From Patescibacteria group bacterium (GTDB taxonomy: Bacteria; Patescibacteriota; SICC01), in NCBI GenBank assembly GCA_040902515.1, contig JBBDXB010000006.1:268280-332279 (forward strand): a DNA stretch of 64,000 nt, written 5' to 3'. A model generated the notes under the pieces. It had not been told where the DNA came from. It ran no database searches and saw nothing but the letters and a program-made list of their open reading frames with translations. Both the position numbers and the translations under genes were made by a program. Of the stretch, positions 10,568 to 58,711 are shown piece after piece. Numbering within the stretch: the first letter of the stretch is position 1; each line of letters opens with the position of its first letter.

Positions 10568-10582
10568 GATGAAAGGAGGAAC

Positions 10583-11816: not shown

Positions 11817-11840
11817 CAGTGTCTGGAGCATATGAAGCAA

Positions 11841-11870: not shown

Positions 11871-11887
11871 AGGCATCTCTGCGGTTC

Positions 11888-12490: not shown

Positions 12491-12579
12491 GCGCAGTTCA
12501 CCTCCTTCCCCATGCAGTACGTCATGTAAGGCGGAGTATACCAGAACGTCCGCTGTGCTTGATATGGAACGGGCGAAAC

Positions 12580-13172: not shown

Positions 13173-13189
13173 GAAACCCCTTTGTCAAG

Positions 13190-14215: not shown

Positions 14216-14318
14216 GATCCGTAACGGATGACTGGTTATTATGACACACCTTTCCCGGATGTTCAGGCGTGCCGGATCGTGCGCGTTTCGAACCCCTAAG
14301 CGGTACACTGGTAAGGTC

Positions 14319-15647: not shown

Positions 15648-15716
15648 ACGCCGGCGGCCTATCCCCGTCCGCACGGTACCTAGAAGCTCCCGCAGCTAAG
15701 CGCTAGGATAGAGTCT

Positions 15717-42803: not shown

Positions 42804-43907
42804 GTGACCTTATTGCTGAAGCGGCTGGCCCTGCATGACTTCCGAAGCTATCGGGAGGCGGTATTCGAGTGGGCGCCGCGGACGGTGATCGTCGGGCCGA
42901 ACGCGACCGGTAAGACGAACCTGCTCGAGGCGGCGTTCCTCTTCGCGGCCGGCAAGAGCTTCCGGGCCGGCCGGGAATCGGAGATGGTGCGCTGGGGAGA
43001 GACGGCCGCACGGGTGGAAGCGGCGTTCGAAGGCGAACGGTCTAACCATCGCGCCGCCGTCACGCTGGAATCCGGCGGCCGAATCATCAGGAAGTCGCTC
43101 GAGCTGGACGGCAAGGCGAAGCCGACCAAGGAACTCAGGCGCCGGTTCCCGATGGTGCTGTTCTCGGCGGACGACGTCCGGCTCGTGGACGGATCGCCCG
43201 GCCGCCGCCGCAAGACGCTGGACCTGGCGATCGGGCAGGGGTCGGCGTCCTACCAACAAGCACTGTCCGGATACAACCGCGCCCTGGCATCCCGGAACCG
43301 GCTCCTGGAACAGATCGCGACCCGCGAGGCGACGGAAGCGGAGCTTGACGCGTGGGACGTCCAGCTGGCCGAAACGGGCGCGGCGGTGATCGAAGGGCGC
43401 CAGCGGTTCTTCGCCGAATCGGCGGAGGCGTTGGCCGCGGCGTACGCCGCCCTGACCACGGCATCGGACCATGTGCACGGTAGGCTGGAGGTCGCGCACG
43501 AGCCGGGCGCGCCGGACTTCGCGACGGCGCTCACAGCGCGCCGCACCCAGGACATCGCGGTGGGTACGACGACGGCCGGTCCGCACCGCGACGACTGGAA
43601 GCTTCTGTTGGACGGCCGGGTGCTGGCCTCATTCGGTTCCGGCGGCGAGTTCCGGAGCGCGGCCCTGGCCTGGCGGCTGGCCGAGACGGATTGGCTCGGC
43701 CGGCAGACCGGCGTGCCGCCGATCCTGCTCCTGGACGACGTCTTCTCGGAACTGGACGCCGCGCGGTCGGAGTCGCTCCGGGCGGCGCTGCCGGACGGGC
43801 AGACGGTGATCACCACGCCGGAAGCGGCTGCCGTGCCCGCGGCGCTTCGCACCGAAGCGAAGCTGATCGAGATCCGCCCGAAGGAATCCGAGGAGGCCGG
43901 TGTTTAA
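42804..43907 (+). CDS. recF: DNA replication and repair protein RecF
   Basis: Walker A GPNATGKTN and signature/Walker B LLLDDVFSELD. Confidence 0.9.
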   Translation: MTLLLKRLALHDFRSYREAVFEWAPRTVIVGPNATGKTNLLEAAFLFAAGKSFRAGRESEMVRWGETAARVEAAFEGERSNHRAAVTLESGGRIIRKSLELDGKAKPTKELRRRFPMVLFSADDVRLVDGSPGRRRKTLDLAIGQGSASYQQALSGYNRALASRNRLLEQIATREATEAELDAWDVQLAETGAAVIEGRQRFFAESAEALAAAYAALTTASDHVHGRLEVAHEPGAPDFATALTARRTQDIAVGTTTAGPHRDDWKLLLDGRVLASFGSGGEFRSAALAWRLAETDWLGRQTGVPPILLLDDVFSELDAARSESLRAALPDGQTVITTPEAAAVPAALRTEAKLIEIRPKESEEAGV

Positions 43908-44610: not shown

Positions 44611-45075
44611 CTAGAGACCCCCGGAGTTTACCATCCGTGTTTCGTAGTCGATGACATACGTCCCGTCGGGCTGCCCGATTTTCCGGAGGTACTCGATGAC
44701 GTACGGTCGTTGCTCGGAGACCTTTTTCGAGGGATCTTCCCCGTCGGCGTAATAGACCGTGGCCAACAGCTTGTACTTGTTGCCCGCGCTACCGTTGAAC
44801 GTCAGTTCCCAATGATCGTTCCCGTATGGAAGCGCCGACAACACCGGATTCCGATCACCCTCTTCCTGATGCTCTTCGAATGCTCCCGCATGCGGATCCT
44901 CATCCAAAGGAAGGGACGGGGAGAGGTCTGGCGTGGGGCTGGCCGGCGTAGTCCCGGGCTCGTCATCGGGCTCACTGCCGAAGAACACTACGGTTATCAG
45001 CGCCACCAGGACCAGCAGGGCAGCCGCGGCGATCAACAGCAGGCGCTTCCGGCTCATGGCGCCTCCCCGTGCCAC
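44611..45075 (-). CDS. Membrane-anchored hypothetical protein (possible VirB8/NTF2-like T4SS component)
   Basis: N-terminal TM, Pro/Thr linker, and ~100-aa beta-rich domain. It is the last gene of the T4SS-like operon. Confidence 0.35.
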   Translation of the reverse strand: MARGGAMSRKRLLLIAAAALLVLVALITVVFFGSEPDDEPGTTPASPTPDLSPSLPLDEDPHAGAFEEHQEEGDRNPVLSALPYGNDHWELTFNGSAGNKYKLLATVYYADGEDPSKKVSEQRPYVIEYLRKIGQPDGTYVIDYETRMVNSGGL

Positions 45076-46118
45076 TCGAAGTGCATCCAGTCCTTGGTGG
45101 TGCGGAAGTTGCCGCCCCAGAAGAAACCGTATTTCTCGAAGATCCGCACCCAGGAGTCGGGAATGTCATGCGTATCGCATTTACAGTACGGGTTCGTGTC
45201 CGGATTGATGTCGACCGCCGCGCCGTACATGTGGAAATAATACAGCGGGTCTCCCGGCCGGGGATGGTAGCCGCCGATCGACCGGACCTTGTAGTTATCC
45301 AGTCCCTTTTGCTTTATTTCCCGCTCGACGGCCTCCAGGCACGGCACGACCTTGCGGTGTGCCTGGATGTCGTGGCCGAAGAACGAGACCGGCTGCTTGG
45401 CCGCCGCACTGTTCGCCTTTCCGAAGACCTTTTCCCGATCTCCCACGTTGGATCCGGGAAGTCCGAAGGCGATCCCGTTCGCCGTACACTCGCCGGCCGG
45501 GCCGGAATCTTCCGGACAATCCTCCCCGGCATCGGCCGGCGCGCCCGTGTTGACGGCGCTGCGGACGATTTGTGCCAACCGCTCGTATCCGGCGGCATTG
45601 GGGTGGATGTTGTCCGCCATATCAATCCCCTTACCCTTGGTCTGGATGACCGTGACGTCTCCGAGGCCCCTGATCGCCTGGTTCTCGTTCGCGTAGTCAC
45701 CCCGGGAGAAGATCTCGACCCAGTATATCGCCGCCGAGTCGTTCTTGTTCCTGATCTTATTCACCATCGTCTGGGCGTCCGCGGCAAAGCCGTTCGACTT
45801 ATTAGTTCCGAGCTCGACGACTACGGCGTCGGCATTCTCTACTTTCGGCGTGTCGCTTTCGAGCGCGCTGATTCCGGCCGGGAGCGCGCGGCCCGTTTCG
45901 GCATTGACCGTATAGCGGTCGCCCAGCTTGTCCCGGATGCCCGTGCCGATGGAGTCGCCGACGAAGTAAACGGGCCCGTCCCCGGGTGCGGCTGCTTCGG
46001 CGACGCAGTCATCATCACCACCGCCGCCGAGCAGCGCCGCTGCCAATGCGATCGGCGCGATGATGACCATCAGCAGCAGGCCGATGATGAGAAGTCCGAT
46101 GCCGAGGTATTTTCCCAT
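45054..46118 (-). CDS. Bifunctional cell-wall hydrolase: SGNH/GDSL hydrolase domain plus peptidase M15 (VanY-like D,D-carboxypeptidase) domain
   Basis: N-terminal TM, then VYFVGDSIGTG / ELGTNKSNG / DNIHPNAAG (SGNH blocks I, III, V). C-terminal YHPRPGDPLYYFHMYGAAVDI...DWMHFEWHG (M15 zinc motifs). Confidence 0.55.
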   Translation of the reverse strand: MGKYLGIGLLIIGLLLMVIIAPIALAAALLGGGGDDDCVAEAAAPGDGPVYFVGDSIGTGIRDKLGDRYTVNAETGRALPAGISALESDTPKVENADAVVVELGTNKSNGFAADAQTMVNKIRNKNDSAAIYWVEIFSRGDYANENQAIRGLGDVTVIQTKGKGIDMADNIHPNAAGYERLAQIVRSAVNTGAPADAGEDCPEDSGPAGECTANGIAFGLPGSNVGDREKVFGKANSAAAKQPVSFFGHDIQAHRKVVPCLEAVEREIKQKGLDNYKVRSIGGYHPRPGDPLYYFHMYGAAVDINPDTNPYCKCDTHDIPDSWVRIFEKYGFFWGGNFRTTKDWMHFEWHGEAP

Positions 46119-46120
46119 GA

Positions 46121-46789
46121 TCAGTCCGTTGCTACGTGTACGTGCTCGTTTCCGTCGGGATTGCTGCCGGTGACTCTGCCGTTATCAAGCACGCAGCCGG
46201 GGTTCGCGATACCGAAGAGCTCGTTGATCTTGTACGGATTGCCCTCCTTGAGCGCCGAATCACAGAGGAACTGGTTGAGTCTGTGGGGATTATCAGTGCC
46301 GACGCTTCCGATATCCAAGGCTTGGCCGGGAGGACAGTGGAACGACCCCGCCTTATGGGATGCGCACGCCGCCGACGAGATGGCCAGGTTTCCCATTCTT
46401 GGCTGCTTTGCTGCTGCCAGAACAGCCCGAAGCACGTTGTCCTTGACGTCACCGCTTCGGATTTCCGTCTTGATGACTTCCTTTTGGTACGTGATGTTCC
46501 GCTGGGCCAGGAAAGCATCGCGCAGCTCCTTGCCGGACAGGCCGATCTCTCCGGCTTCCACGCTCACTTCATCATCTCCATCACCGCCGGATCCGGCGAT
46601 GCCGGCGACGGCGATACCGACGAGGAACACCAGCAGGAAGACTACGGCAAGTACGGCCACGACGACCCAGGTCCAGGGGTTCGCGAGCAGTGCCGCGGCC
46701 CGCGCCGTTTTCGCGGCCTTTGCCGCCTGACCGGCCGCTCCTGCGCCGGTCCGATCCTGCTGATCAGCCATCGTAGCCCTCCCGGTCAT
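46121..46789 (-). CDS. Membrane-anchored peptidase M15-like (VanY-like) protein
   Basis: N-terminal TM, with ASHKAGSFHCPPGQALDIGS (SxHxxGxAxD-like) and NEHVHVA (HxH). Confidence 0.4.
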   Translation of the reverse strand: MTGRATMADQQDRTGAGAAGQAAKAAKTARAAALLANPWTWVVVAVLAVVFLLVFLVGIAVAGIAGSGGDGDDEVSVEAGEIGLSGKELRDAFLAQRNITYQKEVIKTEIRSGDVKDNVLRAVLAAAKQPRMGNLAISSAACASHKAGSFHCPPGQALDIGSVGTDNPHRLNQFLCDSALKEGNPYKINELFGIANPGCVLDNGRVTGSNPDGNEHVHVATD

Positions 46790-47297
46790 AATCGCTGATG
46801 TGGACGTCCGTCGCGCTCCAGCGCGAACCGAACCGCTGCCAGGTGATCTCGATCGTTTGTTCGAACGTTTCCTCGGTCCGGAGCAACGTCGAACGCAGCC
46901 GCACCTCCGCCTGTGCCTCTCCGGCCGCGGAGTCGCCCGTCACGTCAGTCCGCAGCGCCTCGCTCCTGACCGGCTGGAAAAACGGGGCCCGGTCCGCATA
47001 GCGCAGAGTGCTTCGGTAGTCCTCGTAGAATTCCTTCGTCAGGTACGGGCGGATGCTCTCGGCATACGCCGCGTCGGCCCGTGAGAAGGACTGGTACTTT
47101 ACGGCCAACTCGGTTGACAGGCGCGCGAGCAGCTCCCGGTCGGCGGCGAGCGGGTCGGCGGTAGGTGTGGGCGAAGGCGGGGCCGTTGGCTCCGAAGTCG
47201 CTCCGGGAGCGGCGCGCCCGGCGGTCAGTACCAACAGCACTCCGGTTACCAGAATGGCAAAGATGACGAGCATCAGGATCAGCCGTTTTCTGTTCAT
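46764..47297 (-). CDS. Membrane-anchored hypothetical protein (possible VirB8/NTF2-like)
   Basis: N-terminal TM, Pro/Thr-rich linker, and ~120-aa globular domain. Overlaps its neighbours. Confidence 0.35.
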   Translation of the reverse strand: MNRKRLILMLVIFAILVTGVLLVLTAGRAAPGATSEPTAPPSPTPTADPLAADRELLARLSTELAVKYQSFSRADAAYAESIRPYLTKEFYEDYRSTLRYADRAPFFQPVRSEALRTDVTGDSAAGEAQAEVRLRSTLLRTEETFEQTIEITWQRFGSRWSATDVHISDYDREGYDG

Positions 47298-47941
47298 GTG
47301 CCTCCCTCGACATCCTTCGCGAATCGCTGTGCCTGCAAGGTCACCGCGTATACGTACCAGTCTGCATTGTTGTAGGAATAGATGCCATTCCGCCAGTTAC
47401 CGGGAGCGCCCCCGCCCAGGAGGTGATGGGCGGCTGCACAGGCGCCGTTCTCAACCGAATAGGCGGGCCAGGTGCGGGAGCCGGCTTCCCGGCACGGGGG
47501 ATTGTGGTTGATGGCGAAGCCCTGCCAGCTTGGTTCAAGGAACTGCCAGGGGCCGCCCGCACCGGCAAAGTTTACGACCGAATAGCCGGTGTCGGCGAAA
47601 CCGGTCTCGATGCTATGGATCCCCGCCAGGATCGACGGTCCGCAGCCTCCGAGCTTCTTCTTTTCGGAAATCTCGTTATAGATCGGAATGAACTTGGCGG
47701 GAGGTTTGTCGGTCTTGCCGGCGACGTACGCCTTCCCGGCTTCGGCACCGGCGGATGCGTCGCTGAAGATCTTATCGTAATCACATCCGCCCGAAAGGGA
47801 ACCACCGGCGTCTTCACCCCCACCCCCACCGGTCCCGGCCAGGGCCGCGGCCACCAGCAGGATCGGAATCATCGCGAGGCTTGCCAGGAACACCCCGCCT
47901 CCGAGGATCAGCCACGGCGCACCGCTCGACTTCTTGGCCAC
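47294..47941 (-). CDS. Lytic transglycosylase-like (SLT/VirB1-like) membrane-anchored protein
   Basis: N-terminal TM, Gly-rich linker, ...ILAGIHSIETGF... (catalytic E-S/T) and AGAGGPWQF (GLMQ-like). Lies immediately downstream of VirB4. Confidence 0.5.
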   Translation of the reverse strand: MAKKSSGAPWLILGGGVFLASLAMIPILLVAAALAGTGGGGGEDAGGSLSGGCDYDKIFSDASAGAEAGKAYVAGKTDKPPAKFIPIYNEISEKKKLGGCGPSILAGIHSIETGFADTGYSVVNFAGAGGPWQFLEPSWQGFAINHNPPCREAGSRTWPAYSVENGACAAAHHLLGGGAPGNWRNGIYSYNNADWYVYAVTLQAQRFAKDVEGGT

Positions 47942-49872
47942 TACTCCTCCTTCAGCCGGAGGCCGGCGTTCTCCAGCTCCTCAAGCTGCTGCGGGTTGGT
48001 GGTGATGATCTGGTCCTCGGCGTAGCTTGCTAGCACCTTGATCGCCACGTGGTTGAGCCCGGCGAAGAACAGCCCCTCGCCGACCTCGCTCTCCAGCAAG
48101 AGGAGCTTCTCGCCCTCGGTAAGGTTGAACGTGTCGGCCACCAGGTCGATCGATGCCGGCGATTGCCGGAGCAACAGTTGCAGCGAACTGTTCGTCACGA
48201 TCGCCTTGCCGTAGCTGGAATTCAAGAAGTCCTCCACGTCCTGCGTCACCGTGGTCAGGCCGAGATAGTATTTTCGAGCCCGCTTCGCCAGCGAAAACAG
48301 GAACTTCGCCGAGTCTTCGTGCCCCATCATCTGCCAGGCTTCGTCGATTACCATCAGTCGGCGCTTCCGGTCCTTCCGGATCAAATTCCAGATGTGGTTC
48401 AGGATCATGTACATCGCGATCGGCCGGAGCGAATCTTCCAGGTCGCGGATCGAGAAGGTCAGGAAGTGGTTGTCCAGCGAGACGTTGCTCGGCTTGTTGA
48501 GGAGTCCGGAGAACGAACCGGTCACGTACTTCTGGAGCTTCGACGCGACTTCCTCGGCGCCCTGCATGTTGGTCAGCACCTCATGGAAGTCCTGGAGCGT
48601 CGGCGGTGCGTTCTTGTGCGATGCTACGTCGGTGGTGATGTCGCGGAGCGCGTACGTTTCCATCAGGGCCCGGTCGACCAGCGCGTCCTGTTCGGGAGTC
48701 AGCGAACCGCACATCAGGGCGATCAGCCCGTGCAGGTTGGTGATCGCCGAGCGCAGGATCGCCTCGCCGTCCGTTTCGTCGCCGAGCGCCGGTGGCAGGT
48801 CGAACGGGTTGATGTTGTGCTCCGAGTTGAGCGACACGTTCACGAACCGTCCACCGACCGCGGCAGTCAGCGCCTGGTACTCGTTCTCCGGGTCGATCAC
48901 GATCGTCTCGGTGCCGAACATCAGCGAGCGGAGCAGTTCCAGCTTCACGGCGTAACTCTTACCACCACCGGACTTGGCGAAGATCACCATGTTGGCGTTC
49001 TCGAGCGTGAACCGGTCGAAGAGGATCAGCCCGTTGTTGTGGCGGTTCACACCGAAGAGGATGCCGTCGGACTGGGTAAGCTCCGAGCTCGTGAACGGGA
49101 ACGTCGTCGACAGCGAATCCGTGTCCATGTTCCGGGTGACGCGGAGTTCGTCGGTCCCGGTCGGGAGCGAGCTGTTGAAGCCCTGCTCCATCTGCAGGTT
49201 CGCATACTTGGTGAAGACGAGCTTCCCGTTGAGGGTCGCTTCGAGCTGCTTGGTGAGCCGGTCCAGCTCGTCCTTCGACTTCGCGTAGAGCGTGAAGTAG
49301 AGGGCGTACTGGAAGAACTTCTCCTCGCCGCGCTGCAGGCGGTCGCGGAGCTCCTCGGCGTCGCCGAGCGCGGTCTCCAGCTCCGGATCGCGAACCTTGC
49401 CCTTTTCCTTGTTGAGCATCCAGGCCGATTCCATCTGACCGACCTTCTTGCGGAGGTTCTGCATGATCTCCTTGGTCTCGACCGGGTAGATGAACATCGA
49501 GATGTCCATCGTGATGTCGTAGTTGATGACCGGATTCAGCCAGTTCGTGTTGATGTACCGCGGGTAGGTGAAGACGAAGAGCGTCCGCACGAAGTAGTCT
49601 TCGAGCTTGAGGTAGTTGAAAGTGATCTCCATCGCCGCCGGAGCGATCAGGTCCTTGATCGTGGAGATGCCTTCCTCGTAGACGCGCTTGGCCTCCTCGA
49701 ACTGCTGGGCCTCGACCTGTTGCTGGGAGCGCTCCGCCTGGGAAGCCTTCCCCTGCTTCCAGGCGAAGAACCGCTCCAGGAAGCTCGGCTTGTCGGAGCC
49801 GACGGAACGGCCGACGGCTTCGGCCGGTACGTCCGGCACGGGGGGTGCCTGCTGGTCCGGCTGGTCAGCCAT
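47941..49872 (-). CDS. virB4: Type IV secretion system ATPase VirB4/TrbE/PrgJ family
   Basis: N-terminal VirB4 domain (IKDLIAPAAMEITFNYLKLEDYFVRTLFVFTYPRYINTNWL), Walker A FAKSGGGKSY, Walker B MVIDEAW. The ATG at 49872 is preceded by SD GGAAGGAGG. The Arg-rich stretch upstream in the track ORF is not taken as coding. Confidence 0.9.
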   Translation of the reverse strand: MADQPDQQAPPVPDVPAEAVGRSVGSDKPSFLERFFAWKQGKASQAERSQQQVEAQQFEEAKRVYEEGISTIKDLIAPAAMEITFNYLKLEDYFVRTLFVFTYPRYINTNWLNPVINYDITMDISMFIYPVETKEIMQNLRKKVGQMESAWMLNKEKGKVRDPELETALGDAEELRDRLQRGEEKFFQYALYFTLYAKSKDELDRLTKQLEATLNGKLVFTKYANLQMEQGFNSSLPTGTDELRVTRNMDTDSLSTTFPFTSSELTQSDGILFGVNRHNNGLILFDRFTLENANMVIFAKSGGGKSYAVKLELLRSLMFGTETIVIDPENEYQALTAAVGGRFVNVSLNSEHNINPFDLPPALGDETDGEAILRSAITNLHGLIALMCGSLTPEQDALVDRALMETYALRDITTDVASHKNAPPTLQDFHEVLTNMQGAEEVASKLQKYVTGSFSGLLNKPSNVSLDNHFLTFSIRDLEDSLRPIAMYMILNHIWNLIRKDRKRRLMVIDEAWQMMGHEDSAKFLFSLAKRARKYYLGLTTVTQDVEDFLNSSYGKAIVTNSSLQLLLRQSPASIDLVADTFNLTEGEKLLLLESEVGEGLFFAGLNHVAIKVLASYAEDQIITTNPQQLEELENAGLRLKEE

Positions 49873-50755
49873 TGCTGCCTCCTTCCTGGTCAGTCGCCTG
49901 CTGGTCCGGCTGTTGCGGCTGCGCCGGTTGCGGTGGCGCGGACTGGGGCTGCGGTGCATAAGCCGCCGATTCTGTCTGGGGTTCCATGGTGGCCGGACTC
50001 GGCGCGGGTGCCTGTCCGGTCGGTCCGGCAGGCGCTTGTCCGTGGTTCGGCCCCCGGACCGTCGCTGCCGTCAGCTCGTCCACGTTGACCAGGCGCTGCT
50101 TGGTGGCGGTCTGCGGGTTGTAGATGCTGTAGAACAGCTCCACCAGTTCCTCGGAGTTGAGCTGGGCGGCACGGACGCCGAGCGCACCTAGGCCGGACGC
50201 CACCGACTCGGTCCGCTGGAGCAGCTGGCCGCGGTAGTTCTGGAACGTTGCCTCGCGCTTGGCGACCTCCTTGGCCGGCTGGGGATTGGTGGCGAACAGC
50301 TTCCCGAGTCCCTTGGCCGGTTCGGTCGCCGGCGGGAAGTACGGCACGATCACGTAGAACCGCTTGTCCATGATGTTCGTGACCGAGATCAGCCGGGAGA
50401 TGAACTCGCCGTACTCGATGGTCTGGAGCTTCACCAGCTCGATCGGCTGGTCGTCGGCCCGCTTCTTCAGCTTGTCGAGATAGTAGTCGAGGTCGAGCCG
50501 CCGCGAGTGGATCAGGATTTGTATCGGGAAGTTCAGCGAGTTCAGGAACCGCTGGTAGGCGTAGATCATCGCGTCCTGTTCCTCGCCGGACTTGAGCGCG
50601 AAGTTAACGGCGCTGGTCATCAGCACCGCGCGGAGCGAGCCGTCCTTCAGGACGATCACGCCGTCCTTGATCTCGGAGATATTGAGGTACGCCTGCGTGG
50701 AAGCCGCCTCCTGCTTCCGCTGCTGCTGTTGCTGGGTCTTGTCTTGCTTCGCCAT
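49865..50755 (-). CDS. T4SS-associated hypothetical protein with Gln/Pro/Ala-rich C-terminal tail
   Basis: 296 aa from ATG 50755 (SD AAGGAG 7 nt upstream). Conserved-looking N-terminal domain (IKDGVIVLKDGSLRAVLMTSAVNF...FPIQILIHSRRLD), then a low-complexity tail QAPAGPTGQAPAPSP...PQPAQPQQPDQQ. Overlaps the virB4 start by 8 nt. Confidence 0.5.
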   Translation of the reverse strand: MAKQDKTQQQQQRKQEAASTQAYLNISEIKDGVIVLKDGSLRAVLMTSAVNFALKSGEEQDAMIYAYQRFLNSLNFPIQILIHSRRLDLDYYLDKLKKRADDQPIELVKLQTIEYGEFISRLISVTNIMDKRFYVIVPYFPPATEPAKGLGKLFATNPQPAKEVAKREATFQNYRGQLLQRTESVASGLGALGVRAAQLNSEELVELFYSIYNPQTATKQRLVNVDELTAATVRGPNHGQAPAGPTGQAPAPSPATMEPQTESAAYAPQPQSAPPQPAQPQQPDQQATDQEGGSNG

Positions 50756-50756
50756 G

Positions 50757-51422
50757 TCAGGCTCCTTGTCCCGTCGGTTTGGGGGCAACGTCGCGCTGCG
50801 GTGATCGCCGCGCCTGCCTTGCTATCTTCTGGCTCAGTACCTGGCCCAGGTCGGCGCTGGCCCGGTCGGACCCGGCCCCCTCTTCCTCGCGCTCCAGGAT
50901 GTCCTGGGGTTCCTCGGTCTGGGCCATGAAGATGTTGAGCTTGGGCTTGGCTTCCACGTCGCTGGTGATCCGGCCGGTCGTCTCCGCCGCATCCACCTCG
51001 CTCCAGCCACGCGCGTCCACGATGTGGGACAGGCGTGCGAGCTTGGAGCGGACCTCTTCCTCCGACGGCTCTTCCTGCACGACCCTCGGCGGTGCCTGCC
51101 GATCTTCCAGCTTGATCTCGCCGAGACTGGGCATCCGCTTCCAGGCACGTCGCGACGGACGCACGTAGAACGAGAAGAACGAGCTGATGAACTTGGCGAA
51201 CGGCTGGTCGTTCGGACGGATGAAGACGAATGCCCCCGCGATGATCCAGGTGAACGCGGTGACCATAAAGAACGCGGGCGGCGAGGCGGTGTAGAACGCG
51301 CTGAACGACACGAACGTCACCAGTCCGGCTGCCAGCAGGTAGAAGAACTGCTTGAGCGTGAACGGCCCGAGGATCTTGTCCTCAAGCTCGACGTTCTGCG
51401 GGATTTTGTAGCTGCTGGCCAT
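50757..51422 (-). CDS. PrgI/VirB3-like family conjugation/T4SS membrane protein
   Basis: MASSYKIPQNVELEDKILGPFTLKQFFYLLAAGLVTF followed by a second TM, the hallmark N-terminus of the PrgI family. Acidic C-terminal extension. Confidence 0.6.
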   Translation of the reverse strand: MASSYKIPQNVELEDKILGPFTLKQFFYLLAAGLVTFVSFSAFYTASPPAFFMVTAFTWIIAGAFVFIRPNDQPFAKFISSFFSFYVRPSRRAWKRMPSLGEIKLEDRQAPPRVVQEEPSEEEVRSKLARLSHIVDARGWSEVDAAETTGRITSDVEAKPKLNIFMAQTEEPQDILEREEEGAGSDRASADLGQVLSQKIARQARRSPQRDVAPKPTGQGA

Positions 51423-51510
51423 GTTGGTTTTTATGGATACACTGTCCGCGAAAATTAACTAAGATTAACACTTTTTAGCTGAAATGTCAATGGTTTAAGG
51501 CGCCACCGGC

Positions 51511-53871
51511 TCATAGCGTGGGGTGGTCGAACGGAAGGCCGAGCGAGCGGCGGCCGTCCTGGTACTTCTTGACGACCGCGCTTTCGGTGCCCTGCTGCTT
51601 GGCTACCTCGGCCTGGTACTCGGCACCGGTCTTGAAGTCGGCACGGTTCACGCTGGAGCTGAGCAGTCCCTGCCGGGCCACTTCGTACGCCAACCGCTGC
51701 TTTTGGGCGGAGTGGAACTTGTTCCGGGCGGTGGCATCGGAGGCTTCGGACAACCGCACGCCGTCCAGGTTGCGCATGACGCGTAGGTAGCGGCCGTCGC
51801 CGCTCAGTGCACCCTGCAGCACGTTCGTATCCATGCCACGCAGCGTATCGGAGTCCATCAGCTGGGTCTTGATGTCCAGGGAACCGAAGTTGATGCGGTC
51901 GCCGCTGCGCTCGTACGAGGAGATCAGTGGATCGCCCTTGTGCAGCTGCTGGTAACCGGTCCAGGCGAGGTTCTTTGGCCCTTGGAGCATGTGTTCGTCG
52001 ACGTACTCGGCCTGGGCCAGCTCCTTGAAGGCTGCCGCCGAGTTGATGCGGTTCTGGGCCAGCGCGTGCTCGGTGGCGTCCATTTCCATGCGTTGGTTCG
52101 GATCGCCGCTCGAGTGGTTGGCGAAGTATCTCCCGCCCTCCTGGACCGTTCCGTACTTGTAGCCGTGGGCGATCCGGTTCTTGGCAGAGATCGACAGCGG
52201 GATCATTTCTTTCTGTGCCTGGTTCACCATGGACTCAAGCGCTGCGACTTGCTGGCCCTGCGACATGCCAGTGAGCGTGCGGGTGAGTCCCGTGCCGCTG
52301 GGACCGAGCTGGTTGAACGCCTCAGCCATCGCGATCCGGTTGTGAGCGGCTGACAGCATGGCGTCTTGCTCCTGGCTGTCCTTGCGTTGCTTGAAGAAGG
52401 CCTTGGTCTCGCGGCCGCGCTGACCGATCGTCTTGCCGCCGGGGCCCGGAAGCATGCCGACGGCGCCCAGGCCGCCCTTGCCGCCGATGCCCCCGGCACG
52501 TTTGCCCTGGCCGGCGGCCATGCTGGCGACCCGCCCGCCGAGCGCCAGCGGCACGGCCACCGCGGCGATCACGATGCCGGCGAAGAAGAGTGCCTGGATG
52601 ATCGCGGTCGCGCCTGACCGGCCCGTGTCCGCACCGGTCAGGATGGCCTCAAGCATCAGCGACCCGACGAATAACAGCAGGAAGGCGACCGGCGCCATGT
52701 AGACCCAGCGGATGTACGTCTGGAGCAGGTTCCTCGATTCACCGCGGGTGAACGGAAGCACCAGGAACAGGAACAGCGCGGGTGAGAGCACGGCCAGGAC
52801 CCAGATCACTACCACGCGGACGATGAAGAAGAACAGGAGGACCAGGAGGGCAACGAGGATGATGATCGACGCCAACAGGAGGACGACGCCCTCTCCGAAA
52901 CCGTCAGCCAGTCCGCTCGCGAACCCGCTTCCTACGCCCGACCAGGACTGGATCATGTCCTTGGCGTGTTCCGCGAACGGCTGGCTGAGGACGAAAGCCG
53001 TGTTGGCGAGGATGTTCGCGAACAGGAAGCTGAAGTTGACGGCCAATATGGAGAAGACGAGAAGCGGCAGGAGCTGGCGGACGTTATACTTCTGTGGCTC
53101 GATCCGGATGATGGACGAAAGCGCCAGGCCGCTCAGAACGAGGATGAAGATCAGGTTCACGACGTCACGGACGACCTTCCATCCCTCCGCCAGGCCCCGG
53201 TTCTCGTTGAAGTTACCGACGTCCATGGCCCACAGGAGGGCGTCGGTGACGCTGCCGGAAAGACTCGAGACGACCTCCGCCATCTTGGCCAGCGCCTTGG
53301 CGAACGGGTCATCCGAAGCCCGGTCGAGCAAGCTCGTCTGCTCCACGTCGGTCGCGGCGCCCCCTTCTTCCGCCCATGCGATGCCCTCCGCATTGGACCG
53401 GTCCTTGAGGAACTCGCCGATCGGTGTCTTATGGAAGTCGATCAGGTTACAGACCTTGTTGGCAGGCTCCAGGCCCTCGCCGGGCGGGCCGTCGACTACG
53501 TAACCGAAGCCGCCGCCGTTACCCGGGTCGTTCCGGAACAGGAACGTAAGCCCGCCGCTCCCCGTACCGTCCGGCTTGAAGAAGAAGTCCCAGCTGTCGA
53601 GGCCGCCGCCGCGGTCGTGGTGCTTCAGGGCATTGAACGTGAACGTGATATCGCCGACCGTGACGCCCAGGCTTTCGGGGCGGACCTTGTCGGGATCATC
53701 GGGGAAACTGCGCGGTTGGAAGCGGTAGTCCTCGGTCTTGCCGTCAGGGCAGGCAAGGGAATCGGCAGGAGCGGCACTAACCGGCTCCGCCGCCAGGCCC
53801 AACGAGAGCATGACGAACAGGCCTCCGAGGGCCGCCGTGCTGAGCCGTCTGATTCGTTCAGGAAACCGCAT
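51511..53871 (-). CDS. VirB6/TrbL-like polytopic T4SS membrane protein, paralog 1 (signal peptide, ~210-aa extracellular N-domain, 6-7 TM core, Gly-rich segment, ~300-aa cytoplasmic C-domain)
   Basis: Signal peptide LGLAAEPVSA. TM core VVNLIFILVLSGLALSSIIRIEPQKYNVRQLLPLLVFSILAVNFSF... shared with the next gene. GKRAGGIGGKGG linker. Confidence 0.45.
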   Translation of the reverse strand: MRFPERIRRLSTAALGGLFVMLSLGLAAEPVSAAPADSLACPDGKTEDYRFQPRSFPDDPDKVRPESLGVTVGDITFTFNALKHHDRGGGLDSWDFFFKPDGTGSGGLTFLFRNDPGNGGGFGYVVDGPPGEGLEPANKVCNLIDFHKTPIGEFLKDRSNAEGIAWAEEGGAATDVEQTSLLDRASDDPFAKALAKMAEVVSSLSGSVTDALLWAMDVGNFNENRGLAEGWKVVRDVVNLIFILVLSGLALSSIIRIEPQKYNVRQLLPLLVFSILAVNFSFLFANILANTAFVLSQPFAEHAKDMIQSWSGVGSGFASGLADGFGEGVVLLLASIIILVALLVLLFFFIVRVVVIWVLAVLSPALFLFLVLPFTRGESRNLLQTYIRWVYMAPVAFLLLFVGSLMLEAILTGADTGRSGATAIIQALFFAGIVIAAVAVPLALGGRVASMAAGQGKRAGGIGGKGGLGAVGMLPGPGGKTIGQRGRETKAFFKQRKDSQEQDAMLSAAHNRIAMAEAFNQLGPSGTGLTRTLTGMSQGQQVAALESMVNQAQKEMIPLSISAKNRIAHGYKYGTVQEGGRYFANHSSGDPNQRMEMDATEHALAQNRINSAAAFKELAQAEYVDEHMLQGPKNLAWTGYQQLHKGDPLISSYERSGDRINFGSLDIKTQLMDSDTLRGMDTNVLQGALSGDGRYLRVMRNLDGVRLSEASDATARNKFHSAQKQRLAYEVARQGLLSSSVNRADFKTGAEYQAEVAKQQGTESAVVKKYQDGRRSLGLPFDHPTL

Positions 53872-53985
53872 GTGCCGTATTTGGGAAAGACTTCATTGTA
53901 CCGCTCTGGCCTCTTAGGGGAAGCTATGCCGCGTTTCGTGTCCGGCGTGTGTCCGGCGCCTGCAGGCACGGTTTGCTTGCTACCC

Positions 53986-54017
53986 AAAAAGCGCTCAATC
54001 ATGGCATAATTGAGCGC
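53986..54017 (-). terminator. Intrinsic terminator between the two VirB6-like genes
   Basis: Perfect 9-bp inverted repeat GCGCTCAAT-N9-ATTGAGCGC at 53991-54017, followed on the minus strand by TTTTT. Confidence 0.5.
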
Positions 54018-54036
54018 CACGGTCAAGAGGGCCGAA

Positions 54037-56634
54037 TCAGTGGATGGTGGCGTTGGGGTTGTTATGGGAATCCAGAACTGACCGGTTGGCGTTCGCGTCA
54101 TGGAATCCGCCGGCGCCCGCGAACCGTCGCATGAGTTCACGCTGCTGATCCTGCGGCATGGAATTCCGATGGCCTTGGGTCACGGCGTAGGCAGCACGAG
54201 TCTTGTCCAGGCTCCCAAGCGATTCCGCTGCCGTGCGGTGGTAATCCGATGTTTCCCTTCCTTCGGCGTAATCGACCGCGGCTTGCAGGTAGGTACTGTG
54301 GTCCCACTTCTTCATGTCGTCGGGAGAAGCGAACTGCACCTTGGCATCGGCCGTTCCCTGGCGGTACTCACCATTACGGTCGACGGCTGCCTGGGCCGGG
54401 TCGGATACGTTAAGCTGCTGTAGCCCGCTTCCTGCATAGGTCTCCGTGAGGTCGTGGGTCGCCAGGCCGGCCTGGGAAAGTTCCGCGAACGCCGCTTCGG
54501 AGGCCTGGCGCTTGCCCGCGAAGTCCGCCTCGTCCGCGGTGAGCCTGCCGAGAGAGTTGTTTCCGCTATCGAAGACCTCGTCGCCCGCTTTCAAACTAGG
54601 ATTACCATGCGCCCAGGCGATACGGCGTTTGCCAGCTGGGGTAACAGTGGCCATCTCCTTCTGGTACCGTCCGATGGCCCGCTGCTGGGCGATGGTGCGT
54701 TGTCCCGGCGTGGCTCCCGTGAGCTTGCCGACACCCTTGCCTCGTCCGGTCTGCTCCTCAAGGTGGGCCATCGCAGCCTTTTGGCGCAAGTCGCCACGAG
54801 AGCCTTCCGCGTATGACTTCGGCTTCTTCAGGCCGAGACCGTAGCCGGTCGCCCGGGCCCGGGTAGCCAGGGATGTCCCGCCCGGACTGACCCGGCCGAC
54901 CGTCCCGGCAAGCGCGGCCCCGGCACCCTTTCCGCCGTACTTCCCGGCTTTCCCGGCACCTCTTCCGGCCGACTTGACGCCTCGGTATGCTTGCCCGACG
55001 ACCTGGCCCCCGAGTTGGAGCGGGATCATCACCGCCGCCACCGCGGCCAGCAGGAAGAAGGCGACCTTCAGGAGAAAGTCGGGGCCGTTGATGTCTTCAT
55101 TCCCCCGTCCGGCGGTACCGATCAGTTCGGCCGCGATAAACAGCAGGACGAAAGCGATCGGTGCGGCGAAGATCCACTTCAGCGCGTTCTGCCACCACTG
55201 GCCAGCCAGCCCCCTCGTCAGCGGGAGGACCATAAAGAGGAACACGAACGGCGACAGCGCGGCCAGGAACCAGATGATCAGCATGCGCAGGACGAAGAAG
55301 GCGAAGAGGATGATGAACCCGAACAGGATCATCAGCACCAGCAGTAGCGCGATGATGAATTGACCGATCCCCTCGCTCGGATCGATGATGCTTCCGGTCG
55401 CCGGCGGATTGGCCAGCAGGTCGAACGCCTTGCTTGCGAACGGCTGGGAAATGATGTAGGCGACGTTAGTAAGAATCTGTACCAGGATGAAGCTGAAGTT
55501 CACCGCGATGACTCCAAAGATCAGGCGGGGAAGGAGTGCCCGTATGCCGTACCGGTCAGTGTCGATGCGGAGGATGTTGGAGAAGGCGATCGTCACCATG
55601 ACCAATATGAAGATGATGTTGACGAAGTCGCGCATGGTCTTCCAGGCATTGGTGAGTCCGCGGTTGTCGGTGAGGGTGCCGATATTGATCACGTTCAGAA
55701 GGGCGCTCTTGATCCAGTCGAGGACCGCACTGATAGCTTCCTTGATCGATTCCAACGCCTTTTCAATGGCGTCACTGAAGGCGCCGGTCGTCTTGTGACA
55801 GGCGTTGGCAGTGAGGTTGTACTCCTTGATTTTCTTTTCGGTCTCATCGCTTTCCGGATCATTTGGGATGTCTTCGGTTTGGTTGGGGAACTGACCCCGG
55901 TCGCCGTTCGGCACTTCCGCGATGATCGTGTCTTCGTTTTCGCGCACCGTTCCCTGACAGGTACCGGCGTACACGAACCGATCTATGTCCCCGGCATTGA
56001 GCTCATTGCCCTTCCGGGACCAGAGGATGATCGCCAGGTTCCGGTTGTACTCATTACGGAAGATCCAGACCACGCCCTTGGAGTGGCCCACACCGGTAAT
56101 GTCGCTGGTGCGCGTCATCACTTCCGACAGTACGAAGCGCACGGGAATGCCCCCGAACTTTAACTGGGTGTCACCGACTTCATGATCCTTGTTGCTCCAT
56201 ACGAGGAACGGGTTTCCTTCGAACTTGAGGAATTCCCGGGAAGTGTTGCTCCGTGCCCGGAAGTCGCCGCGGTACACATAGTTAAGGTTTCGGTCCTTGA
56301 AGGTGTTTCCTTCGATGCCGAACTCCCGCATGGCTTCAGGGACGGAATTTATTTGCTGTAATTCGGTTTTTTGTTCCGCGCTACGCCGATTGTCGATTTC
56401 TTCTATCGGCACCAACGGGGGGATGTCCGGATCAGACTGAGGAGGATCCCCGATCGGTGCCGCGGGAGCGCCGGGTTCGAATGGATTCTGGTCGCTGAAT
56501 TGCGCCTGGGCTTGTCCGGCGGCGAAAGGTGCGACCAAGGCGGGTACCAGCAACGCGCCCAGCACCATGCTGCTCAGCGTGCGGTGCAGCCAACGACGGA
56601 TTCGAGGGCGGGTGAATGTCTTGGTCGCTTTCAT
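54037..56634 (-). CDS. VirB6/TrbL-like polytopic T4SS membrane protein, paralog 2 (~300-aa extracellular N-domain)
   Basis: Signal peptide ...APFAAGQAQA. TM core DNRGLTNAWKTMRDFVNIIFILVMVTIAFSNILRIDTDRYGIRALLPRLIFGVIAVNFSF... paralogous to 51511..53871. Gly-rich AGRGAGKAGKYGGKGAG linker. Confidence 0.45.
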   Translation of the reverse strand: MKATKTFTRPRIRRWLHRTLSSMVLGALLVPALVAPFAAGQAQAQFSDQNPFEPGAPAAPIGDPPQSDPDIPPLVPIEEIDNRRSAEQKTELQQINSVPEAMREFGIEGNTFKDRNLNYVYRGDFRARSNTSREFLKFEGNPFLVWSNKDHEVGDTQLKFGGIPVRFVLSEVMTRTSDITGVGHSKGVVWIFRNEYNRNLAIILWSRKGNELNAGDIDRFVYAGTCQGTVRENEDTIIAEVPNGDRGQFPNQTEDIPNDPESDETEKKIKEYNLTANACHKTTGAFSDAIEKALESIKEAISAVLDWIKSALLNVINIGTLTDNRGLTNAWKTMRDFVNIIFILVMVTIAFSNILRIDTDRYGIRALLPRLIFGVIAVNFSFILVQILTNVAYIISQPFASKAFDLLANPPATGSIIDPSEGIGQFIIALLLVLMILFGFIILFAFFVLRMLIIWFLAALSPFVFLFMVLPLTRGLAGQWWQNALKWIFAAPIAFVLLFIAAELIGTAGRGNEDINGPDFLLKVAFFLLAAVAAVMIPLQLGGQVVGQAYRGVKSAGRGAGKAGKYGGKGAGAALAGTVGRVSPGGTSLATRARATGYGLGLKKPKSYAEGSRGDLRQKAAMAHLEEQTGRGKGVGKLTGATPGQRTIAQQRAIGRYQKEMATVTPAGKRRIAWAHGNPSLKAGDEVFDSGNNSLGRLTADEADFAGKRQASEAAFAELSQAGLATHDLTETYAGSGLQQLNVSDPAQAAVDRNGEYRQGTADAKVQFASPDDMKKWDHSTYLQAAVDYAEGRETSDYHRTAAESLGSLDKTRAAYAVTQGHRNSMPQDQQRELMRRFAGAGGFHDANANRSVLDSHNNPNATIH

Positions 56635-56653
56635 GGCTCAAGAAAATTGGCTA

Positions 56654-56682
56654 ATCATAGCAAAATCAGTGGGAAATGTCAA
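56654..56682 (-). promoter_or_regulatory. Near-consensus promoter (minus strand TTGACA-17-TATGAT) for VirB6-like paralog 2
   Basis: Minus-strand TTGACA (plus tgtcaa at 56677-56682), 17-nt spacer, TATGAT (plus atcata at 56654-56659). The -35 context TTGACATTTC also recurs upstream of the PrgI-like gene (51485-51490). Confidence 0.55.
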
Positions 56683-56741
56683 CCGTGCCACCTGGCGGTG
56701 GCCGAGGTGCAACCGGAGCCTTCGCGGAACCAGCCCATAAG

Positions 56742-56769
56742 AAAAGAGGCCCGCGCGCGGGCCTCTTTT
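56742..56769. terminator. Bidirectional intrinsic terminator after pilin gene 1
   Basis: aaaa-GAGGCCCGCGCGCGGGCCTC-tttt at 56742-56769. On the minus strand the hairpin is followed by TTTTCTT. Confidence 0.7.
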
Positions 56770-56785
56770 CAGGACAGGGCCGAGG

Positions 56786-57160
56786 TTACTCGGTAACGCG
56801 GAAGCCGCGTTCGACGCCCAGGTACTGCTGGATCAGTCGCGTCAGTACGAACGCGATGAAGATGATGATCAAGCCAAGGATGGCATAGAGGATGGTCTTC
56901 CGGGCTGCGTCGACCTGTTCGGGGTTGCCCGTGGAAACCACGTAGCGGAAACCGCCGATAATCAGGAAGAGCACCGCGACGGCGCCGGCGAAGAGCAGCA
57001 GCGCTTCGATGACGCTGGCGAGCACTTCGCCCAGCGAAGTACCGGACACCGGGTTGTCGATGTTTGGCCGGCGTACCTGCGCGAACGCGGTCTGTACCAT
57101 GCCGAGCGAAAGCGCGAAGCCGGAACCGGTTCGGATGAGAAGTTGTTTCATGCGTATCAC
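56786..57160 (-). CDS. VirB2/TrbC-like pilin, paralog 1
   Basis: Signal peptide ending AFAQ, then hydrophobic helix - GGFRYVVSTGNPEQVDAARKTILYAILG - second hydrophobic helix. 124 aa. Confidence 0.6.
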   Translation of the reverse strand: MIRMKQLLIRTGSGFALSLGMVQTAFAQVRRPNIDNPVSGTSLGEVLASVIEALLLFAGAVAVLFLIIGGFRYVVSTGNPEQVDAARKTILYAILGLIIIFIAFVLTRLIQQYLGVERGFRVTE

Positions 57161-57180
57161 CTCCTTTCTATGTTTGTCGT

Positions 57181-57822
57181 TTACCCACGTGTCGCTTGGA
57201 TAGTCGTCACCACGATAACATAGGAAAGGAACACCACCGCGAGCCCGATGACCGAGTACAGGATGGTCTTTCGGGCCGCCTCGACCTGGTCCTGGTTGCC
57301 CTGCGAGGTGACGTAGCGGTAGCCGCCGAGGATCAGGAACAGTACCGCCGCGGCGCCGCCGAACGCGAGGAATATCTCGAACAGGCGGGCAAGGATGCCG
57401 CTCGCACTGCCGGGTGCTCCCTGGATCGCACCGCCGATGCCGGGGGCGCGGGACACCCTGGTCTGCAAGCTCGCGTCCAAGGTCCGTTGGAGCAACACTA
57501 CGATCGCATACGAACTGACCGTCAGGATGAACCCGGTGATCGACCAGGTCAGCCCCTGCTTGGCCTTTTCCACCTTCTCCGGGTTGCCTGCCGAGAGGAT
57601 GTACTGGTAGCCGTTCACGACGATGAACAGGACGGCGACAGCGGCCGCGAACAGCATCCCGAACCGGATGAACTGCACCAGGATCCGGACGAGGTCGTCG
57701 AGTCCGACGCTGCGCGGCGTCTGCGGGATGTTGAAGAATCCGCCCTGGGCGCTGGCCGTTTCCGGAAGAAGCACGGCAGCGGCGACGGCCGAAAGCAGCG
57801 TGACCGGCAGGTACCGCTTCAT
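57181..57822 (-). CDS. VirB2/TrbC-like pilin, paralog 2 (internally duplicated, two pilin modules)
   Basis: Signal peptide ETASA, then module A (NGYQYILSAGNPEKVEKAKQGLTW) and module B (GGYRYVTSQGNQDQVEAARKTILYSVIG), each between hydrophobic helices. Confidence 0.55.
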   Translation of the reverse strand: MKRYLPVTLLSAVAAAVLLPETASAQGGFFNIPQTPRSVGLDDLVRILVQFIRFGMLFAAAVAVLFIVVNGYQYILSAGNPEKVEKAKQGLTWSITGFILTVSSYAIVVLLQRTLDASLQTRVSRAPGIGGAIQGAPGSASGILARLFEIFLAFGGAAAVLFLILGGYRYVTSQGNQDQVEAARKTILYSVIGLAVVFLSYVIVVTTIQATRG

Positions 57823-58187
57823 ATCCGGAGTCCCGAGTTAAAGCCGAGCGCCCGTGAGATCATGAAGATCACGCCGACCGAGACGATCGCGACGATCAGC
57901 CCATAGACGGCGTACAGCAGACTCTTCTTCGCACGATCCACCAGCTCGGGGTTGCCCTGCGCGACCATGTACCGGTAGCCGGCGATGGCTACGTAGAGGG
58001 CGGCGACGGTGGGGATGAAGAAGATCAGCGCGTTGAAGATGGCGCTGATCGGCTCCCCGAGGTTGTCAAAGCCGGTCTGGCTCTGGATGCGTCGTGGCCG
58101 GTTGCCCGGGTCCGGCAGCTGCGCGGCCGCCTGAGCGGGAACCGTCAGGAGCAGCGCCAGTGCCGAATAGCCGAACCGCCGCATCAT
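57819..58187 (-). CDS. VirB2/TrbC-like pilin, paralog 3
   Basis: Signal peptide ...VPAQAAAQ. AGYRYMVAQGNPELVDRAKKSLLYAVYG between two hydrophobic helices. Start set at the internal Met (MMRRFGY). Confidence 0.55.
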   Translation of the reverse strand: MMRRFGYSALALLLTVPAQAAAQLPDPGNRPRRIQSQTGFDNLGEPISAIFNALIFFIPTVAALYVAIAGYRYMVAQGNPELVDRAKKSLLYAVYGLIVAIVSVGVIFMISRALGFNSGLRI

Positions 58188-58657
58188 CCGCCCGGCCTCG
58201 TGAAGTCGATGTCGCCGCAGCCGCGTTCTCCCGGCCGGCACGGGTCGGTGGTCCGTGGATTGATCGTACTGAGGATCAGCGCCGCCAGGATCAGCAGGGC
58301 TAGGCCGATCAGGGTCTTCTCCACGATGTCCTTGGCGTTCGAGATCTTTTCCGGATCGCCGTAGCTTCCCATGTAGGTGTAGCCCGCGTAGATCAACATG
58401 ATGATCGCGAGGAGCCCCCCGATGAATGCGAACCAGATGTAGGCCGCGTTGATGTACTGCACGACGGACGTCCGCTCGACCTCCTGGCCGCTGACCGGGT
58501 CGATGTTATCGCCGTCCCGGTCGCGGGCTTGTGCCAGCGCCGACCCGTCGGCGGTCGTCCCGGCGGACGGAGCCGCTGATGCGGACGGAGCGGTCGTCAC
58601 TGCAAGTCCGAGCGCGAGCCCGACGGCGAAAATGAGTTGGACGGTTCGTGTAATCAT
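58184..58657 (-). CDS. VirB2/TrbC-like pilin, paralog 4, with Cys-containing C-terminal extension
   Basis: Signal peptide ...PSASA. AGYTYMGSYGDPEKISNAKDIVEKTLIG between hydrophobic helices. C-terminal DPCRPGERGCGDIDF. Confidence 0.5.
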   Translation of the reverse strand: MITRTVQLIFAVGLALGLAVTTAPSASAAPSAGTTADGSALAQARDRDGDNIDPVSGQEVERTSVVQYINAAYIWFAFIGGLLAIIMLIYAGYTYMGSYGDPEKISNAKDIVEKTLIGLALLILAALILSTINPRTTDPCRPGERGCGDIDFTRPGG

Positions 58658-58711
58658 GGGCGATAGGGTAAGGGAGCTATCATAGAGCGGAAAAACGGCT
58701 TCGTAAAGGCG

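Follow-up and report, generated by a model that had tools for sequence, protein, structure and literature searches.

The Patescibacteria account for a large share of uncultured bacterial diversity, and their cultivated members grow as epibionts on other bacteria. In the one genetically tractable species a type IV secretion system (T4SS) and its pilin array are essential. Strain ML1 of this organism, Southlakia epibionticum, carries six pilins of the family PF18895, SEML1_0014-0019, within its T4SS cluster and pilin subunits are called essential (Wang et al. 2023, PMC10633639); in the gene tables of that work SEML1_0017-0019, at least, are scored as essential (PMC10633639). The subject of the present analysis is a comparable locus in a 64,000-nucleotide stretch of Patescibacterial DNA (contig JBBDXB010000006.1 of assembly GCA_040902515.1, hereafter the window), in which four tandem genes between positions 56786 and 58657 encode five pilin modules beside the genes of a T4SS.

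Pilin arrays of this kind have already been published. A search of 3,035 Patescibacterial genomes with PF18895 and PF04956 returned 441 arrays of 2-11 pilin genes, with a mean within-array identity of 25%, for which antigenic variation or adaptation to different hosts was suggested (Quinonero-Coronel et al. 2025, PMC12102498). The same work reports a dnaA-proximal chromosomal position for Patescibacterial T4SS loci, describes VirB2-like pilins as absent from the MPF-FATA systems and considers borrowing from diderm bacteria possible (PMC12102498). A 2025 review singles out the arrays as the sole exception to the general absence of pilins from monoderm T4SSs (PMC12857230). Separately, cryo-electron tomography of the Saccharibacterium Mycosynbacter amalyticus has revealed a ‘lance/conduit’, 8.6-9.0 nm across and 60-70 nm in length, that extends from the parasite inner membrane into the host and has no assigned genes (PMC11880426). 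An earlier note on this DNA, made from the sequence alone, had read the four genes as tandem VirB2/TrbC-like pilin paralogs of a T4SS locus, and its core is essentially the published reading. What is new here is modest, namely a conserved di-pilin, orthology by position across relatives and the signals that bound the operon. Pilin-pilin fusions, the terminator and promoter boundary and the positional orthology are all unmentioned in PMC12102498 and PMC10633639.

The best overall explanation, to which a probability of about 0.7 can be attached, is that the locus is the pilin operon of a chromosomal monoderm-type (MPF-FATA-like) T4SS in a bacterium of the Saccharimonadia (Patescibacteria, or Candidate Phyla Radiation), and that its five differentiated modules follow the Sec route and are assembled into a tube or pilus-like conduit. 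The locus shares with the published arrays (SEML1_0014-0019; PMC12102498) the family PF18895, tandem divergent paralogs, linkage to PrgI/VirB3-, VirB6- and split VirB4-like genes, a chromosomal position near dnaA, the phylum and, judged from close relatives, the class (Saccharimonadia). The closest GTDB species representatives are titled Candidatus Saccharibacteria or Saccharimonadia, and an identical copy of the di-pilin protein occurs in a metagenome-assembled genome (MAG) at NCBI, GCA_040881485.1, labelled ‘Patescibacteria group bacterium’, and in three Logan runs. With a GC content of about 62% the genome is a high-GC one. Its four tandem pilin genes lie 6.8 kb from virB4, within the published definition of an array as 2-11 pilins near that gene (PMC12102498). 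The layout differs from that of ML1, in which at least five of the six pilin genes have a single PF18895 stretch each, whereas here four genes hold five modules and one gene is a conserved di-pilin.

The four minus-strand open reading frames (ORFs) lie head to tail and encode five helical-hairpin modules in a 1-1-2-1 layout (Table 1); genes are numbered from the distal end of the operon, so that gene 4 is transcribed first. They are found where the earlier note placed them, with two start codons refined. For gene 3, ATG 58187, which overlaps the gene 4 stop codon as ATGA, is the most likely start and is preferred over GTG 58241, and public assemblies also give a 122-residue protein; gene 1 starts at ATG 57151, eight bases after AAGGAGG. 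All four N-termini are signal-peptide-like, being basic, then hydrophobic and ending in an AxA site (ASA/A, AQA/A, ASA/Q and AFA/Q). In every module a short polar loop is flanked by two hydrophobic segments, each about 30 residues long, of which gene 2 has four in all. These signal-peptide and helix assignments, which agree with those of the earlier note, were made from hydropathy, the AxA rule, an alanine at -1 that is kept in 50 orthologs, and AlphaFold helices. The AlphaFold model of gene 1 is a hairpin of helices 40-72 and 77-110, with a block-mean pLDDT of 94-97 over residues 51-100, and that of gene 2 has four long helices at 41-76, 81-114, 140-172 and 177-211.

The five loop sequences quoted previously are encoded as given. 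The motif that they were said to share fits two of the five modules when applied as written, whereas the relaxed core G[FY].Y..[SA].G[ND][PQ][ED].[VI]..A[KR] fits all five and has exactly five matches in the six-frame translation of the window, every one of them in the pilin block. A hidden Markov model (HMM) of the module, built from homologs, likewise finds no further pilin module in the window. The paralogs within the array are 24-55% identical to one another.

Table 1. Features of the pilin operon and its surroundings, in window coordinates.
Feature	Position	Strand	Basis or remark
Pilin-operon promoter-like site TTTACG-17-TATGAT, ~22 nt upstream of gene 4 ATG	58679..58707	-	9/12 consensus positions
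Pilin gene 4 (first in operon), 157 aa	58184..58657	-	PF18895 45.7 bits; hydropathy; orthologs 51-92% identical
Gene 4 C-terminal tail P-C-x6-C-G-D-I-D-F-[TS]-[KR]-P-G-G (Cys140, Cys147)	58187..58243	-	7-ortholog alignment
Pilin gene 3, 122 aa, one module	57819..58187	-	PF18895 33.0 bits
Pilin gene 2, 213 aa, covalent di-pilin	57181..57822	-	PF18895 77.0 bits, two stretches; module HMM, two domains
Gene 2 module A, residues ~44-112	57487..57693	-	Module HMM, hydropathy
Gene 2 inter-module linker, residues ~113-141, no internal signal peptide	57400..57486	-	AlphaFold pLDDT 53-62 (low)
Gene 2 module B, residues ~142-212	57187..57399	-	Closest paralog of gene 1, 55% identity
Gene 1 Shine-Dalgarno AAGGAGG	57160..57166	-	GAAAGGAGGTGA upstream strictly conserved
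Pilin gene 1 (last in operon), 121 aa, one module	56786..57151	-	PF18895 43.3 bits; 359 homologs
Intrinsic terminator hairpin, 13-bp stem, A-tract before and T-tract after	56741..56770	-	Folding
Near-consensus sigma-70-type promoter TTGACA-17-TGcTATGAT for machinery genes	56654..56682	-	11/12 consensus
VirB6/TrbL-like polytopic protein, 865 aa	54037..56634	-	Weak PF04610, E = 0.003; L005 ortholog carries TrbL_3/TrbL
Second VirB6/TrbL_3-like protein, 786 aa	51511..53871	-	
PrgI (VirB3-like) protein	50757..51422	-	PF12666 42.4 bits
TraC-like/TrsD protein, separate gene	49865..50788	-	Resembles VirB4 N-terminal domain
VirB4-family ATPase, CD1110-type	47941..49959	-	NF045971 385.7 bits (cut-off 325); PF19044, PF12846
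Whole T4SS locus	44611..58657	-	
recF	42804..43907	+	
dnaN	41571..42662	+	
dnaA	39839..41269	+	

All four genes pass the Pfam gathering threshold for PF18895 (T4SS_pilin; 26.6 bits) with scores of 33-77 bits, and this is the sole Pfam family that passes its threshold in them. Every homolog listed carries PF18895 as a precomputed annotation. The block stands directly upstream, and on the same strand, of genes in the order two VirB6/TrbL-like, PrgI (VirB3-like), TrsD/TraC-like, VirB4 and a secreted M15 peptidase/GDSL hydrolase. The earlier placement of the genes in a T4SS pilin family is borne out by both the scores and this company.

The narrower claim that they are TrbC/VirB2 pilins proper is not sustained, and here several observations weigh against the preferred explanation. 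The scores for PF04956 (TrbC/VirB2) are 22.1, 17.9, 23.2 and 14.7 bits for genes 1-4, all below the threshold of 27.9. An hhalign comparison of the 87-sequence gene 1 family with VirB2/TrbC gave a probability of 2.3% and covered the signal peptide alone, in what is a weak test because the VirB2 alignment was narrow, comprising four annotated plasmid genes from Agrobacterium, Sinorhizobium, Rhizobium and Acetobacter. A profile search of PDB sequences with the same family found just a spurious MacB transmembrane segment (E = 0.07). At the level of structure, no filament of PF18895 has been shown by experiment in Patescibacteria, for which the review speaks of the ‘potential to elaborate conjugative pili’ (PMC12857230), and monoderm T4SSs normally have no pilus.

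Some homologs do carry a precomputed PF04956 match, so the relationship is borderline. The proteins share with the VirB2, TrbC and TraA pilins of diderm bacteria a small size, a long Sec-type signal peptide, two hydrophobic helices, a short basic loop, a place within a T4SS locus and an expectation of high expression. In contrast to these, the present genes score below the PF04956 threshold and have no profile-profile similarity to genuine VirB2, and they belong to a monoderm host with Gram-positive-type machinery and form several differentiated paralogs with covalent tandem fusions. With the PF04956 scores below threshold and the hhalign result negative, ‘VirB2-like’ is thus a description of architecture and context. 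Fold comparison cannot discriminate here, because matches to a helical hairpin are non-specific; a Foldseek search of the PDB with the di-pilin model gave nothing at E <= 0.001 and its best matches were unrelated helical bundles. Identity with the Flp/Fap pilins of Tad systems, for which the earlier note had proposed a search, was rejected. These too are small hydrophobic secreted proteins that are often encoded in tandem, but gene 3 alone matches PF04964, where 17 residues (113-129) give a negligible 16.5 bits and the cut-off is 32.2, and no Tad machinery adjoins the array.

A closer relative is found in the integrative and conjugative element (ICE) of Mycoplasma. All four genes match 68-70 of the 80 positions of NF045849, the profile of the pilin-like protein Mbov_0395, with E-values of 8.5e-13 to 3.3e-07. 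The scores are 47.8 bits for gene 2, 38.9 for gene 1, 29.9 for gene 3 and 30.4 for gene 4, so that the di-pilin alone passes the cut-off of 40, and does so by summing two modules, whilst the single-module genes stay at 29.9-38.9. The pilin genes are, from these profile matches, related to the NF045849 family without being equivalogs. Both systems lie close to a VirB4 of the MPF-FATA type, and the VirB4 and TrsD-like proteins of the window match the Mycoplasma ICE VirB4 model NF045975 (Mbov_0397), below its cut-off. The Mycoplasma proteins are encoded on mobile elements that transfer DNA, whereas the present system is chromosomal and neither a relaxase nor a coupling protein was found among the large window ORFs examined, the others being housekeeping genes. 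A tblastn search of 72,556 plasmids with gene 1 gave no match, which suggests that plasmids sequenced from cultured bacteria do not carry this family. Taken together, the matches to NF045849 and NF045975 hint that at least part of the monoderm MPF-FATA lineage has a pilin-like protein of its own, rather than one taken over from diderm systems, and they bear on the origin of the Patescibacterial pilins. Were this so, the pilin type would be part of an ancestral monoderm (MPF-FATA/Mycoplasma-ICE-like) T4SS.

The pilin block appears to be a single transcription unit, in which the four genes stand between a promoter of their own and an intrinsic terminator. The site TTTACG-17-TATGAT ahead of gene 4 probably serves as the promoter; both hexamers (TTTACx-17-TATGAT) and the AGCTCCCTTA that follows them are kept upstream of gene 4 in the related contigs L009, L010 and L005. 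ATGA overlaps couple genes 4 and 3 and genes 3 and 2, the gene 2 ATG at 57822 overlapping the stop codon of gene 3, and such coupling suggests that the paralogs are expressed together rather than as alternatives. Gene 1 differs in that GAAAGGAGGTGA is strictly kept 5' of its ortholog in six of six relatives, whilst no comparable Shine-Dalgarno sequence stands ahead of genes 4, 3 or 2. The strength of this site suggests that gene 1 is likely to encode the major or bulk subunit.

The operon ends at a hairpin, found by direct folding, which a simple terminator scanner missed because the T-run lies inside the stem. A 61-nt stretch folds with a dG of -35.4 kcal/mol (z = -4.5), and none of 200 shuffled versions folds as well. 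In L005, L007, L009, L010, L012 and L013 the last pilin gene is likewise followed by a hairpin of this design, with stem sequences that differ and yet still pair. About 60 nt past the terminator, and before the first VirB6-like gene, is a separate promoter in which TTGACA-17-TGCTATGAT is almost invariant and TTGAC...TGCTATG.TT...AATTTT is invariant in six species. The terminator and this second promoter together indicate a separate operon for the pilins and a machinery whose expression does not depend on read-through alone. The terminator reported by the earlier note is real and conserved, whereas its role as a simple attenuator that sets the ratio of pilin to machinery by read-through does not hold.

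Gene 2 was described beforehand as an in-frame fusion of two modules, and its four hydrophobic segments and two PF18895 stretches agree with this. Its modules A and B are 35% identical, with B nearest to gene 1 at 55%, which points to an old fusion of two already distinct paralogs and not to a recent internal duplication. Di-pilin orthologs make up more than 50 clusters, with lengths of about 205-247 aa and 44-94% identity to gene 2. Longer chains also occur. When 1.84 billion representatives were scanned in full by HMMER with the profile of the gene 1 family, 79,736 proteins matched at E <= 0.001, among which the top scorers (P0184-P0326) have 2-16 matched stretches, although the frequency of poly-pilins cannot be read from a ranking that favours multi-module proteins. 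Examples are P0236 (1,775 aa, 16 stretches), P0219 (1,147 aa, 11) and P0184 (552 aa, 6), and in the sequences inspected the only signal peptide is that at the N-terminus, the linkers, about 20-30 residues long, containing none. P0184 (L021:1777-3435) carries its six modules within a five-gene pilin array. A gene-calling artefact, in the form of stop-codon read-through under a wrong genetic code, was rejected for gene 2, which was read directly, recurs in more than 50 clusters and has a linker with no internal signal peptide, and also for P0184, where a check at the DNA level with table 11 gave a reading without an in-frame stop or TGA.

Two further contigs carry other forms of the module. In L015, from a distant Patescibacterium (Candidatus Dojkabacteria DUTP01000005.1, 9567-11321), five tandem single-module pilins are unfused, the module count being the same as here. 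In L016 (CAZLFP010000005.1) two giant stop-to-stop ORFs of about 1,039 and 2,656 aa, at 6691-9807 and 9836-17803, each open with a single pilin-like module (module HMM scores, 56 and 65 bits) and could represent fusions of such a module to a very large extracellular protein; the MAG is labelled ‘uncultured Gammaproteobacteria’, a label that may be wrong.

In known conjugative pilins the N- and C-terminus share one face, the outer one, as the structures of the F- and T-pilus show. If the topology were the same here, tandem fusion would be allowed and would tie neighbouring protomers together. However, covalent fusion equally fits a membrane-embedded ring of hairpins, and the main alternative, though considerably less probable than a conduit of pilins, is that the modules are integral-membrane parts of the secretion channel, forming a ring or bundle comparable to the c-ring of ATP synthases, where tandem-fused hairpins are also found. 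The abundance of fusions in the family, from the di-pilins to the proteins of 3-16 stretches behind one signal peptide, with the six-module case verified in DNA, speaks for such a channel, and long poly-hairpin chains would fit a membrane ring more easily than extraction of single subunits into a filament. The usual lack of a pilus in monoderm T4SSs points the same way, as does the ECOD assignment given for SEML1_0018, at least, in the supplement of Wang et al., ‘F1F0 ATP synthase subunit C’ (PMC10633639). The hairpin fold match is non-specific, however, and the outward termini of the conjugative pilins make tandem fusion compatible with a filament too. Moreover, the strong separate promoter, the strong Shine-Dalgarno sequence of gene 1 and the terminator suggest a bulk structural product, and a tube about as wide as a conjugative pilus does exist in a Saccharibacterium, without assigned genes (PMC11880426).

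It has also been proposed, by analogy with the VirB2 paralogs of Bartonella and Anaplasma, that the paralogs act as major pilins that can replace one another and are retained to provide antigenic or host-range variation; such variation is favoured for the arrays in general (PMC12102498), and its antigenic form was raised in the earlier note. The divergence of the paralogs within the array, which matches the published average, accords with this, and so does the region of gene 4 after its signal peptide, presumably exposed, that differs in length and sequence among orthologs. The comparison of relatives nevertheless makes variation improbable in the present clade. Those recovered are L005/L006/L011, L007/L008, L009, L010, L013, and L012 with L014, this last pair being one MAG. 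Every one of them has, between an SBP gene and a VirB6-like gene, an array built in the same way, of four genes and five modules in the order single, single, double and single, so that the pilin genes are retained in all the related genomes examined, where their absence beside an intact locus had been named as a possible refutation. Each position has a clear ortholog in each relative, with 46-93% identity across species, against the 24-55% between paralogs. The neighbouring SBP gene, at 50-93%, diverges at a similar rate and the VirB6-like genes diverge faster. The genes are translationally coupled within one operon and so would be co-expressed rather than switched, and there are no silent cassettes, inverted repeats or extra pilin modules elsewhere in the window. 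Positional orthology, the absence of accelerated divergence and the ATGA coupling argue against antigenic variation and for paralogs that are old, stable, functionally differentiated and co-expressed subunits.

That the genes merely encode small membrane proteins beside a T4SS to which they are unrelated, as might be taken from sub-threshold, composition-driven Pfam matches (Sdh_cyt, MatE, DUF6112 and others) and from inconsistent automatic JGI names of homologs (‘amino acid transporter’, ‘Na+-driven multidrug efflux pump’), is already largely refuted and very improbable, given that PF18895 alone passes threshold, and in four of four genes, that the linkage to VirB6, PrgI and VirB4 is kept from close relatives to S. 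epibionticum, that NF045849 is matched with E = 5e-10 to 8.5e-13 and that the S. epibionticum homologs are essential along with the rest of the T4SS (PMC10633639).

Under the preferred explanation, of a T4SS pilin operon, each product would be exported through the Sec pathway, with signal peptidase I cleaving it after the AxA site. It would then reside in the membrane as a helical hairpin, with the short basic G-N-P-E...A-[KR] loop in the cytoplasm and both termini facing outward. Such hairpins would be passed to the VirB4/VirB3/VirB6-like machinery and built into a tube, or a conduit resembling a pilus, that leads toward the host cell. The five modules may be old, functionally differentiated subunits co-produced in fixed proportions, with gene 1, through its conserved strong Shine-Dalgarno sequence, providing the likely major subunit and the translationally coupled genes 4, 3 and 2 the likely minor or specialised ones. 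As a covalent dimer, the product of gene 2 would place its two modules as adjacent protomers.

The product of gene 4 consists of a signal peptide, a variable low-complexity N-terminal region, one PF18895 module and a conserved C-terminal tail. The CRPGERGC extension that the earlier note had singled out as a possible disulfide or metal site is present within this tail. Its cysteine pair is kept in six of seven orthologs, whilst the ortholog in L007 is without the pair but has four cysteines in an N-terminal extension. The variable N-terminal region and the conserved tail would fit an exposed, possibly disulfide-stapled, specialised subunit.

The idea of a heteropolymer, also put forward in the earlier note, is plausible. 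The F pilus has a width of about 8.7 nm. The ‘lance/conduit’ of M. amalyticus (PMC11880426) is of similar width, and a PF18895 array would be an obvious candidate for the genes that encode such a tube. A more specific proposal, which is tentative and as a whole rather unlikely, is that the five modules build one hetero-oligomeric tube of fixed composition that corresponds to this lance, with gene 1 forming the shaft, gene 4 the tip or base and the di-pilin fixing two neighbouring protomers. If true, PF18895 assemblies would be made from pre-linked protomers, with 3-16 stretches per chain in the poly-pilins. We know of no conjugative pilus that is constructed on this principle.

The locus leaves the general picture of Patescibacterial T4SSs unchanged but narrows the options, since ancient, position-specific and co-translated paralogs point to a multi-subunit structure. 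The conserved di-pilin and the longer poly-pilins also provide a natural constraint on protomer adjacency for modelling and cryo-electron microscopy.

Several features of the neighbouring genes can be added. The VirB4 protein is split, in that a TrsD/TraC-like ORF precedes the ATPase gene, and in related contigs (L001) the called genes overlap by a few bases; this agrees with the arrangement described for Patescibacteria. The two large VirB6/TrbL-like proteins are paralogous and, with an interspecies identity of 37-68%, diverge faster than either VirB4 (84-92%) or the pilins. An additional gene that the window does not have, of 450 or 276 aa and without a Pfam match, separates the pilin operon from the first VirB6-like gene in L005 and L007. 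At the far end of the T4SS locus a 354-aa protein (45054-46118) combines Peptidase_M15_4 and GDSL-lipase-like domains and is a candidate for a cell-wall hydrolase analogous to VirB1 but from another family. Between it and virB4, at 46121-47941, are three ORFs of 222, 177 and 215 aa that have no Pfam match.

The T4SS locus abuts dnaA, dnaN and recF, which are on the plus strand. Cumulative GC skew reaches its lowest value at about 40-42 kb, and the entire T4SS locus is on the minus strand to the right of it. The locus, including the pilin operon, is thus apparently transcribed head-on to replication.

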